Sequence record: OQ626344
Direction: 5' to 3' (one strand)
Origin: Escherichia phage S127 BCL3
DNA length: 64,000 nt
In this document: positions 31,385 through 32,149 of the stretch, piece after piece
Layout: each line of letters starts with the position of its first letter
How positions within the stretch are numbered: position 1 is the stretch's first letter
Position numbers and translations under genes: made by a program
The notes under the pieces: generated by a model
Databases searched by the model: none
What the model was told of the DNA's origin: nothing
The model's input: only the letters and a program-made list of their open reading frames with translations

Positions 31385-31415
31385 TGCTGTGGTCCCCTTT
31401 CGTTTTGATAGGGCC

Positions 31416-31444
31416 ATTATATTAGGCCCTATCGCTATTGTCAA
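31416..31444 (-). promoter_or_regulatory. sigma70 promoter (TTGACA-17-TATAAT) with -10 inside loop of 8-bp inverted repeat ATAGGGCC/GGCCCTAT
   Basis: inverted repeat 31408-31432 overlaps the -10. Confidence 0.45.
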
Positions 31445-31447
31445 GTA

Positions 31448-31702
31448 TTAATGCTCAGGTTTTACAAAAACTACTTCGTTAACAGTGCACCAGACAGAAT
31501 CTCCTTCATCATCTTTAAAGGTAAGACACTGGGCTGAGTTTTCCAACTCATCGAGCTCTTCTTGTGATAAATAGGTCCCTTCTTCCAGAAGGGCTTTTAC
31601 CAGGGGATTCTCACAAAACTCTGCTTCATAAATTGCACCGACTGTGCAATCTTTAAAAGCTCGGTCATTTGCAACGCATTCTGGCTTCAAAGTAATTTTC
31701 AT
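31448..31702 (-). CDS. hypothetical protein (paralog of 31124..31384)
   Basis: 84-aa ORF; AAGGAGA RBS. Confidence 0.65.
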   Translation of the reverse strand: MKITLKPECVANDRAFKDCTVGAIYEAEFCENPLVKALLEEGTYLSQEELDELENSAQCLTFKDDEGDSVWCTVNEVVFVKPEH

Positions 31703-31752
31703 CTTGGCGGTCTCCTTAACTATTTAAAATCAACGCTCTGTCTGTGTGGGGT

Positions 31753-31781
31753 ATCTTACATCTACCCCAACTTGTTGTCAA
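31753..31781 (-). promoter_or_regulatory. sigma70-like promoter (TTGACA-17-TAAGAT) overlapped by inverted repeat TGGGGTA/TACCCCA
   Basis: same architecture as promoter at 31416. Confidence 0.45.
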
Positions 31782-32149
31782 CGACTATTTTCAATCATCC
31801 ACCAAGGATCGAGATAAGTTTGTTGACTTTTTGCCCACTGGCAAACTTCATTGTACATCTGGATCTCTTTGTCCGTCAGTTCACGAATAGGCTCATCTAT
31901 ACCCTCATTTTTGTGGTAATCCCAGTCGGCATCGATTTCCCACAACCATGACTTACGATCTTCACGTTTACGCACACAGAAGTCCCCAGGACGGCCTGCC
32001 AGTGCATTTAAGAACTCGTTCTCCGCTCGCTCCTGGAGAATACTAAGGAGCAAAACGTTGGAGCATGACCGTAAAATGTGCTTCAGCTCACAATCATCGA
32101 TCTCAACTTCAATACGTTGCTTAACTGTGTGGGTACCTTTTACTAACAT
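31778..32149 (-). CDS. hypothetical protein
   Basis: internal ATG of ORF 31778..32176 with AGAGGAGG RBS. Confidence 0.65.
   Translation of the reverse strand: MLVKGTHTVKQRIEVEIDDCELKHILRSCSNVLLLSILQERAENEFLNALAGRPGDFCVRKREDRKSWLWEIDADWDYHKNEGIDEPIRELTDKEIQMYNEVCQWAKSQQTYLDPWWMIENSR

Follow-up and report, generated by a model that had tools for sequence, protein, structure and literature searches.

Promoter-early stem-loops (PeSLs) have been described in the T4-like phages RB49/phi1, PST/T4 and nt-1/KVP40 (Arbiol et al. 2010, PMC2839356; Comeau et al. 2014, PMC4122927). [quoted passage not shown] The stem is of the type GN-loop-CN and is combined with TTGACA-N17-TATAAT (PMC4122927). So far PeSLs have been described only in T4-like phages, and, as the authors noted, evidence from other viruses was lacking; in the literature we likewise found no report of PeSLs in Vequintavirinae, nor transcript mapping for any Vequintavirus.

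The stretch of DNA analyzed here (64,000 nucleotides of record OQ626344, referred to as the window) belongs to a Vequintavirus, an rV5/FV3-like coliphage with 99% identity to phage NHEP1 and a genomic A+T content of about 57%. Among the 54 promoter-like sites counted within the window, two neighbouring ones, P1 and P2 (Table 1), share several features with PeSLs. Both are near-perfect TTGACA-N17-TATAAT promoters, both are placed between an upstream stop codon and a downstream Shine-Dalgarno sequence with ATG, and both adjoin small genes of unknown function. As in PeSLs, stems with a G-run and a C-run are found in the spacer, over either of the two hexamers, upstream of the promoter or just downstream of it, and all five positions are represented in the window. 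Unlike PeSLs, the elements occur in a different subfamily (Vequintavirinae), show no recognisable repeated motif beyond the promoter and are not accompanied by a general excess of hairpins at promoters. In PeSLs, reporter assays and inverse PCR have dealt with termination or attenuation by the stem-loop and with mini-circles that arise through recombination between elements (PMC2839356). We tentatively propose that P1 and P2 are early promoters of the host RNA polymerase and at the same time composites of a promoter and a stem-loop that would act on read-through RNA, an explanation which appears to us the best one at hand and to which we would give somewhat less than an even chance.

Table 1. 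Promoters, hairpins, genes and gene cassette discussed in the text (positions within the window)
Feature	Position	Strand	Composition	Context
P1, sigma70-type promoter, putatively early	31416..31444	-	12/12 consensus	predicted to drive gene A
P1 hairpin	31407..31433	-	GATAGGGCC - TAATATAAT - GGCCCTATC; 9-bp stem, 9-nt loop	
P2, sigma70-type promoter, putatively early	31753..31781	-	10/12 consensus	predicted to drive gene B
P2 hairpin	31747..31769	-	TGGGGTA - GATGTAAGA - TACCCCA; 7-bp stem, 9-nt loop	lineage-specific
Gene A	31124..31384	-	86 aa, function unknown, PHROG 11936	downstream of P1
Gene B	31448..31702	-	84 aa, function unknown, PHROG 12544	downstream of P2
P3	32598..32643	-	TTGACA-17-TATTAT with ACACTGCA - 18 nt - TGCAGTGT around the -10	inside 3' end of upstream coding region
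Promoter at 7190	7180..7218	+	TTGACA (7190-7195) - 17 nt - AATAAT	-35 at apex of nested hairpin
Hairpin at 14158	14148..14166	-	ATCCCT - TGTTGAC - AGGGAT	encloses -35 of promoter at 14158
Gene cassette	20569..20863	-	79-aa ORF 20578-20817	bounded by -35 hexamers 20863..20858, 20597..20592 and 20574..20569

The first-pass annotation of the window had placed sigma70-type promoters at P1 and P2, and these were confirmed on the minus strand. In detail, P1 consists of TTGACA (31444..31439), a 17-nt spacer and TATAAT (31421..31416), and P2 of TTGACA (31781..31776), a 17-nt spacer and TAAGAT (31758..31753). Perfect repeats of 7-8 bp with the -10 in or adjoining the loop had also been noted and exist at both sites, although the repeat at P1 is 9 bp long and not 8. 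Its arms, at 31433..31425 and 31415..31407, contain GGGCC and GGCCC, the loop holds the entire -10, and the 3' arm coincides with the discriminator and start-site region. At P2 the arms (31769..31763 and 31753..31747) carry GGGG and CCCC, and the 3' arm begins on the final base of the -10. The RNA hairpin of P1 has a minimum free energy of -17.4 kcal/mol (z -4.7), which none of 200 shuffled sequences equalled, and the core pattern of the repeat is found at a single place in the window and was absent from all 100 shuffles. For P2 the corresponding values are -12.0 kcal/mol and z -1.7, a stability that 12 of 200 shuffled sequences reached. The promoters themselves are already annotated or predicted, both in phage Gotham and P2 also in the rV5 record ('Sigma70-type promoter; P220'), and only the hairpin of P1 is convincingly maintained, so that what is gained for P1 and P2 is modest.

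P1 lies in an intergenic gap of 63 nt, in which the stop codon of gene B is found 3 nt ahead of the -35. At P2 the -35 shares bases with the TGA that ends gene C, which lies upstream. Downstream of the -10, at a distance of 31 nt (P1) and 50 nt (P2), there is a start codon preceded by a Shine-Dalgarno sequence. PeSLs have an A+T-rich tract ahead of the -35; here the preceding 30 nt, which are coding sequence in both cases, have an A+T content of 70% at P1 and 57% at P2 versus about 57% in the genome. Genes A and B, each provided with its own promoter, are paralogs (blastp identity 29%, E 8e-9; reciprocal PHROG cross-hits) and restricted to the genus; tblastn found no homologue of gene B outside Vequintavirus.

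According to the model that we favour, P1 and P2 would each fill the short gap ahead of one paralogous small gene. At P1 the spacer and the discriminator/start region would pair as arms and leave the -10 looped out. As transcription is predicted to start inside the 3' arm, at about 31409, the whole hairpin would be present only in RNA coming from upstream, that is from P2 or beyond. There it might attenuate or pause the read-through RNA and mark the end of the upstream cistron, while the promoter would restart transcription for the next gene, so that each small gene could behave as a semi-insulated cassette. The overlap of promoter and hairpin may then be seen as a compact fit to the short intergenic gap.

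The main support for P1 comes from its relatives. Its -35 is invariant in 29 relatives (among the -35 hexamers compared, only one relative deviates), its -10 reads TATAAT or TACAAT, and each of the 29 relatives compared retains at least 7 of the 9 pairs of the stem. In an alignment of 12 haplotypes 99.1% of the cells are paired, with one compensatory pair and three pairs that include G-U. In the rV5 clade both arms have changed at the compensatory pair, from G-C to A-U (A-T in DNA), and the path between both states is fully represented: G-U is found in SYGMH1, A.C in 241Ecol014PP and A-U in rV5, PDX, MiataMamis and JES2013. Three further changes in the stem yield G-U. As the relatives are only about 10% diverged, much of this conservation reflects shared ancestry, and a shuffle control for the covariation gave 23 of 500, which is only marginal. 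The search for more diverged copies in IMG/VR returned 2 loci by protein scan and 11 stretches by pattern scan, of which 2 were relevant, and a single metagenome scan gave 109 stretches, three of them rV5-like and with no new P1 haplotype. Given the outcome of these searches and of tblastn, the covariation rests on genomes which are only about 10% diverged. The sole match to a curated RNA family (Rfam 15) was a chance miRNA (E 0.5) located elsewhere.

One may ask whether the repeats have a selected function at all. They could have arisen by chance in the unconstrained spacer and discriminator and have been kept by recent common ancestry, an explanation that we consider unlikely on the whole, even though P2 fits it. 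The 7-bp repeat of P2 is present in 3 of about 116 genomes, namely in the window, in NHEP1 and in JEP1, where it has 6 bp, whereas all other genomes have the non-pairing sequences AAGATTA..TGCTTCA or AAGGTTA..TACTCCT. Taken alone it is not clearly beyond chance; on the other hand, all of the five differences between P2 and the rV5-type sequence increase pairing. The P2 hairpin may thus be a young variant of a small clade, either a newly evolved copy of the P1-type arrangement or a chance repeat. For P1, chance is harder to reconcile with the double substitution that restores pairing across a whole clade, given that only 10-24% of trials with random pairs of stem substitutions retained -12 kcal/mol or better, and with the stability of the sense-strand RNA, which stays at or below -11.2 kcal/mol in eight of nine haplotypes despite six variable stem positions.

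Counts over the window point in both directions. Of the 54 promoter-like sites, 4 have a loop that overlaps the -10 and is closed by a perfect stem of 7 bp or more, versus 1.0 expected (P = 0.018), and G-run hairpins near strong promoters numbered 6 versus 1.8 expected (P = 0.009). In favour of chance, hairpins of -17 kcal/mol or below near the 54 promoters numbered 2 versus 0.87 expected, and the best local hairpin energy did not differ between promoters and genome background (median -8.3 vs -8.3 kcal/mol). Promoter-like sites with and without a following gene had the same mean z of about -0.5, so that a general wrapping of the promoters of this phage in hairpins is unsupported by both energy tests. 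P1 is therefore supported mainly by the comparative data.

Other promoters of the window carry hairpins of their own. The plus-strand promoter at 7190, annotated as P150 in the rV5 record, does have its -35 in the loop of a hairpin, as had been claimed: an inner repeat GGTGTT-GAC-AACACC is enclosed by an outer 8-bp repeat, CACACAGG (7180-7187) and CCTGTGTG (7204-7211), with an energy of -17.0 to -18.5 kcal/mol; across 7 genomes the flanks of the outer stem vary, but the stem itself does not. The hairpin at 14158 reads ATCCTT/AGGGAT (U-G) in B9-1 and ATCCTT/AAGGAT in rV5 and typing phage 14, which is a second compensatory change and again speaks against chance. In most relatives P3 has TGCAGTAT, where a C.A mismatch reduces the stem to 6 bp. 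Hairpins downstream of the -10 were seen at the promoters 23070 and 20264, and a conserved GC hairpin, GGCGGGAA-N3-TTCCCGCC, lies about 10 nt past the -10 of two promoters. The promoter-overlapping repeats at 20574, 26785, 28018 and 23817 are conserved in neither rV5 nor typing phage 14 and were for this reason not counted as elements, a finding in line with chance.

If the P1 hairpin does have a function, it need not be attenuation. Unlike intrinsic terminators, with which they share a G+C-rich hairpin soon after a stop codon, P1 and P2 have no U-tract: the sequence directly 3' of the hairpin is AAAACGAAAGG at P1 and CACAGACAG at P2. A terminator scan of the window picked up neither of them, although it detected true terminators with a U-tract, e.g. 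at 38599-38624 and 28457-28478. A canonical intrinsic terminator was therefore rejected for both sites, and of the earlier suggestion that the palindromes double as terminator hairpins for the upstream gene there remain the position of the P1 hairpin, 20 nt past the stop codon of gene B, its presence as an intact structure only in RNA from upstream and its likeness to PeSLs. The same position and the termination not to be expected from a hairpin that lacks a U-tract would equally suit an RNA 3'-end barrier or processing element, which would shield the message of gene B from 3'-to-5' exonucleases. Cleavage in the AU-rich spacer would have to come first, the element would set the relative stability of the neighbouring cistrons, and its overlap with the promoter would be a matter of simple compaction. 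Such a barrier agrees with the placing of conserved GC hairpins, such as the N3-loop hairpin mentioned above, at the ends of other transcripts, and with the changes that relatives tolerate, most of which give G-U in the sense RNA. Four of the five stem transitions at P1 give G-U on this strand, and the antisense RNA is weakened in five of nine haplotypes. The wobble pairs are suggestive of an action of the sense RNA, but this bias is not significant, and with 9 bp of stem and 9 nt of loop the hairpin would be only a moderate barrier. We regard this alternative to an attenuating composite element as rather improbable.

A quite different possibility is that the repeat acts in the DNA, where a cruciform or a hairpin of the non-template strand under negative supercoiling might present the -10 in unpaired form, so that promoter strength would vary with supercoiling or the state of the genome after injection. 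This would be in keeping with the position of the -10 in the loop, whose register is almost identical at P1 and P2 (stem beginning at +11 and +12 relative to the -35), with the A+T-rich loop and with the energy of the P1 hairpin as DNA (-9.1 kcal/mol, z -4.1). However, five of nine P1 haplotypes, the commonest among the sampled relatives and four rarer ones, have a G.T mismatch, which weakens a cruciform on both strands; four of these five have a second defect, and one has an A.C mismatch too. Since the hairpins of other promoters lie over the -35 or past the -10, there is also no fixed geometry relative to sigma70, and most strong promoters of the window have no such repeat. A 9-nt loop is, in addition, costly for cruciform extrusion, and altogether we judge an action in DNA to be quite unlikely. 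The promoters of the N4 virion RNA polymerase are likewise embedded in an inverted repeat, but they are read by their own polymerase, have a stem of 5-7 bp and a loop of 3 nt and require supercoiling and SSB, whereas P1 and P2 are standard sigma70 promoters with a 9-nt loop whose complementarity at the DNA level is not strictly kept. It is very improbable that the looped -10 is a DNA-level device by which the repeat, extruded while the freshly injected genome is negatively supercoiled, offers host sigma70 holoenzyme a -10 already unpaired, and that the N4 hairpin promoters thus have a counterpart served by the host polymerase; if it were so, the topology of the phage DNA would switch these early promoters on or off.

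Finally, the idea that the palindromes are operators, at which dimeric DNA-binding proteins of phage or host would repress by covering the -10, draws on the perfection of the repeats and on the classic repressor arrangement of a palindrome over a core promoter, but hardly deserves credence and was rejected, because the palindromes of P1, P2, P3, 7190 and 14158 all differ, that of P1 is unique in the window, its half-site ATAGGGCC (half-site centres 18 bp apart) does not recur in the 64 kb, where one-mismatch matches number 21 versus 37 expected, and relatives alter both arms in a complementary manner instead of keeping the bases.

A further likeness between the proposed promoter/stem-loop composites and PeSLs concerns indels and replacements between close relatives. 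Indels of gene cassettes end exactly at -35 hexamers in two places, at 20.6-20.9 kb and at 16.42 kb, where position 16419 is the edge of a -35. The cassette at 20569-20863 is missing from 98 of 99 relatives; at its site NHEP1 and FV3 have one hybrid promoter, and B9-1, rV5 and typing phage 14 have a tandem TTGACA-17-TTGACA. PeSLs are found preferentially in hyperplastic regions beside genes that lack known relatives; in the window the clearly hyperplastic part extends from 12 to 21 kb. Unlike PeSLs, P1 and P2 are situated in a stretch without observed indels: between 30.5 and 33 kb no cassette indels were found, with collinearity in the 113 records, out of 117 matching ones, that cover at least 80% of the region, and none ending at P1 or P2 themselves was observed among relatives. 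Lambdoid morons are similar in being single small genes with their own promoter. They typically have a true terminator, however, and are not thought to move through regulatory sequences (Hendrix et al. 2000, via PMC2839356), whereas the junctions described here fall on -35 hexamers.

The arrangement at P1 is conserved and resembles PeSL cassettes, and we consider the finding as real and largely ordinary. If our reading is true, promoter/stem-loop cassettes are not peculiar to T4-like phages, and PeSL-like cassettes in an unrelated subfamily of coliphages, together with promoter-bounded gain and loss, would support a general swapping of accessory genes in large lytic phages, many of the swapped small genes being candidates for anti-defence functions. 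In practical terms, such elements would mark likely insulation sites of transcription units in rV5-like therapeutic phages.

One small gene of the region (26084-26272) is, again in analogy to PeSLs, common to RB49-like phages, with a DNA identity of 82-83%. The homology is limited to the coding sequence and the Shine-Dalgarno region, and in RB49-like genomes the gene has no promoter of its own. That a PeSL was carried along with this gene was therefore rejected, but the shared gene itself points toward the same view of cassette swapping.

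The minus-strand promoters P1 and P2, which precede the small genes A and B, respectively, each carry an inverted repeat around the -10 element as proposed in the first-pass annotation, and reading of the sequence required small amendments only; in particular, the P1 repeat comprises 9 bp instead of 8. The entire P1 -10 element is contained in the 9-nt hairpin loop TAATATAAT, and the 3' arm of P2 begins with the final base of its -10. The mirror case on the plus strand, in which the -35 element sits at the hairpin apex (promoter 7190), is also as described. As transcription should start about 7 nt past the -10, transcripts from P1 would begin within the 3' arm and the full hairpin would form only in RNA that arrives from upstream.

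Coordinates of the promoters, repeats and genes discussed
Feature	Coordinates	Strand	Description
P1	-35 31444..31439; -10 31421..31416	minus	TTGACA, 17 nt, TATAAT; 12/12 match
P1 repeat	31433..31425 / 31415..31407	minus	GATAGGGCC / GGCCCTATC; 9 bp
P2	-35 31781..31776; -10 31758..31753	minus	TTGACA, 17 nt, TAAGAT
P2 repeat	31769..31763 / 31753..31747	minus	TGGGGTA / TACCCCA; 9-nt loop
Promoter 7190	7190	plus	-35 at apex of GGTGTT-GAC-AACACC, within outer 8-bp repeat CACACAGG/CCTGTGTG
Promoter 14158	14158	minus	6-bp repeat around -35, ATCCCT/AGGGAT
Gene A	31124-31384	minus	86 aa, behind P1, PHROG 11936
Gene B	31448-31702	minus	84 aa, behind P2, PHROG 12544
63-aa gene	26084-26272	minus	behind perfect promoter at 26331

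Genes lie on the minus strand from about 10 kb to about 50 kb of the window, and in transcriptional order the P1/P2 region comes directly after the DNA polymerase gene, among small genes annotated only as hypothetical. Genes A and B encode paralogous proteins (29% identity, E 8e-9 by pairwise comparison) whose two PHROGs cross-match; in our searches gene B was confined to the genus Vequintavirus. The -35 of P2 overlaps the end of the upstream gene, whose TGA stop is part of TTGACA (31778-31781), and the TAA of gene B (31448-31450) ends 3 nt ahead of the P1 -35, so that the whole 63-nt gap between B and A consists of promoter, hairpin and 5' leader. Stop codons in or abutting the -35 hexamers thus show a tight packing of coding and regulatory signals.

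A 2.5-kb query around P1 and P2 matched 117 phage records, all of them rV5/FV3-like myoviruses of the genus Vequintavirus, with Escherichia phage NHEP1 as the top match (99.0%). Sixteen to 18 'Campylobacter phage' records (MG0656xx) share about 90% identity with this E. coli phage and are probably mislabelled or contaminant assemblies; the C9 record is marked UNVERIFIED.

P1 was compared in 29 relatives, namely 25 GenBank phage records and four distinct environmental contigs (IMG/VR, metagenome assemblies), and the hairpin was present in all 29, in nine stem haplotypes. Besides the window form, these include GATGGGGCC, the commonest among the sampled relatives, in which an A to G change gives G-U; GGTCCTATC in SYGMH1 and GGCTCTATC in JEP1, EPFV3 and one metagenomic genome, both with G-U; and forms ending in GGGCT (U-G) in Alma, together with the A-to-G change, and in EduardKellenberger, together with an outer G-to-C change which costs one pair and is shared with naswa. 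In 241Ecol014PP, GATGGGACC contains A.C plus G-U. Finally, rV5, PDX, MiataMamis and JES2013 carry a full G-C to A-U replacement (GATAGGACC/GGTCCTATC), for which both intermediates are represented. Over the 12 distinct sequences 99.1% of the stem cells pair, versus 27–47% when the partner is slid by 1–3 columns; the column-shuffle control was marginal (23/500). Two random stem substitutions retained a hairpin of -12 kcal/mol or better in only 10–24% of trials. The hairpin that lies within the P1 consensus promoter is conserved, and its structure has been maintained. The sense-strand RNA hairpin reaches -11.2 kcal/mol or better in eight of the nine haplotypes, whereas in five the antisense RNA has only -6.7 to -10.7 kcal/mol; G-U pairs on the sense RNA result from four of the five stem transitions, a bias which is not significant and leans toward a role at the RNA level.

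Folding of the P1 region gave -17.4 kcal/mol as RNA (z -4.7, with none of 200 shuffles equally stable) and -9.1 kcal/mol as DNA (z -4.1), and the core pattern occurs once in the window and in none of 100 shuffles. Perfect stems of at least 7 bp with a loop overlapping the -10 were found at 4 of 54 promoter-like sites, versus 1.0 expected from randomly drawn positions (P = 0.018). No general association of promoters with hairpins was seen: promoter regions have a mean z of about -0.5, both with and without a gene behind them, the median energy of the best local hairpin at promoters (-8.3 kcal/mol) equals the genome background, and hairpins of -17 kcal/mol or better lie near 2 of 54 promoters (P1 and 7190; 0.87 expected by chance). 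Enrichment is limited to hairpins of the G-run/C-run class (6 versus 1.8 expected, P = 0.009), and the broader claim fails.

For P2 the fold was weaker (-12.0 kcal/mol, z -1.7, 12/200 shuffles equally stable). Its hairpin is confined to the window and NHEP1, with a 6-bp form in JEP1; in the remaining 113 records, identity over the 73-nt stretch does not exceed 87.7% and the arms do not pair. All five differences between the window arms and the rV5-type sequence raise pairing, which is suggestive but may be due to chance, as this patch is hypervariable. The P2 hairpin is young and of uncertain significance. The repeat at promoter 14158 follows the same pattern as P1, reading ATCCTT/AGGGAT in B9-1, whereas rV5 and typing phage 14 have ATCCTT/AAGGAT; the outer stem of promoter 7190 shows no change across 7 genomes with variable flanks. 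The repeats at 20574, 26785, 28018 and 23817 showed no conservation in rV5 or typing phage 14, and P3, a further minus-strand promoter (32643..32598), lies within coding sequence and has lost one pair in most relatives.

Promoter-early stem-loops (PeSLs), which combine sigma70-consensus early promoters with a stem-loop, have been described in the T4-like phages RB49 and phi1, with the stem-loop mostly between the -35 and -10 or over the -10 and, in further classes, upstream, over the -35 or a short way past the -10; their promoters are very strong, one stem-loop matched rrnB T1 in reducing lacZ read-through, and recombination between PeSLs yields indels and mini-circles (Arbiol et al. 2010, PMC2839356). 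The RB49-type stem is GN-loop-CN with TTGACA-N17-TATAAT (Comeau et al. 2014, PMC4122927). These stem positions and the stem type are all found in the window: over the -10 at P1 and P2, over the -35 at 7190 and 14158, upstream at 14188-14205 (AGGGGC-GATAAA-GCCCCT), and downstream of the -10 at 23014-23032 and 20208-20226 (GGCGGGAA-N3-TTCCCGCC). The latter two are identical 8-bp stems about 10 nt past the -10 of two promoters, invariant in five relatives with variable flanks, and could form hairpins at the 5' ends of mRNAs; read on the plus strand, the copy at 23014 is terminator-like.

From anatomy, conservation and analogy, P1 and P2 are best read as PeSL-like units that combine a stem-loop with a promoter: the hairpin would attenuate read-through transcription or form a 3'-end barrier on the read-through RNA, and transcription would then be restarted from the promoter. 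The suggestion that the palindromes could double as terminator hairpins for the upstream gene is partly supported, as the whole P1 hairpin would be present only in upstream-derived RNA; a canonical intrinsic terminator is rejected, since there is no U-tract after either hairpin and both escape a scan that finds real terminators elsewhere. The proposed role as operators is unlikely, as no recurrence of the half-site ATAGGGCC was seen (21 one-mismatch matches versus 37 expected), the palindromes differ from promoter to promoter and the arm changes are complementary. Rfam gave no family match. The genome paper of rV5, which counts 33 sigma70 promoters and 20 terminators, is silent on promoter hairpins (PMC3606486), and the literature searched contained neither a report linking PeSLs to rV5-like phages nor transcript mapping for Vequintavirus. 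On this reading, an element type already described would also occur in another subfamily of phages.

The genome itself shows PeSL-like shuffling, but not at P1/P2, where 30.5-33 kb is collinear in 113 of the 117 matching relatives (those covering at least 80%); the only hint of a cassette history there is the paralogy of genes A and B, each with its own promoter. Many indels relative to five relatives occur at 12-21 kb. In detail, a cassette at 20569-20863 (about 260-280 bp, 79-aa ORF at 20578-20817) is bounded by TTGACA at 20863..20858 and at 20597..20592 or 20574..20569 and is absent from 98 of 99 relatives, the sole carrier, MiataMamis, having a diverged, larger, three-gene version. Three alleles thus exist: the cassette, a single hybrid promoter without it (NHEP1, FV3) and a tandem -35 (B9-1, rV5, typing phage 14). 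At the promoter at 16424, homology with NHEP1 and FV3 stops at 16419, which is precisely the 3' boundary of the -35 (16419-16424); the downstream cassette (15393-16418) is replaced by unrelated DNA, and each of the swapped cassettes has its own G-run hairpin about 10 nt past the -10. FV3 lacks 13650-14217 (568 bp, including promoter 14158), the ends of which adjoin two similar hairpins, GGGGCTTAAAGGCCCC and GGGGCGATAAAGCCCC. Also missing in FV3 is 12726-12979 (254 bp), flanked by the 20-bp direct repeat ATGCAAACGAATGGCATGGC within a largely non-coding, repeat-rich stretch.

The 63-aa gene has 89–90% protein and 82–83% DNA identity to RB49, JSE and 57 other Krischvirus-type records, from which it follows that the two phage groups exchange small genes; the similarity points to a recent gene transfer across unrelated subfamilies of coliphages. 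A transferred promoter element is not shown by this case: within 26064-26284 the homology covers the coding sequence and Shine-Dalgarno region only, the promoter at 26331 is not shared, and the RB49-like homologue has no promoter of its own. Insertions are also seen elsewhere: the DNA polymerase gene (32909-35686), uninterrupted in the window, carries insertions at 33262/33263 in rV5 (276 bp), FV3 (842 bp, with an HNH endonuclease) and NHEP1 (996 bp), and rV5 has a 638-bp endonuclease insertion at 28498.
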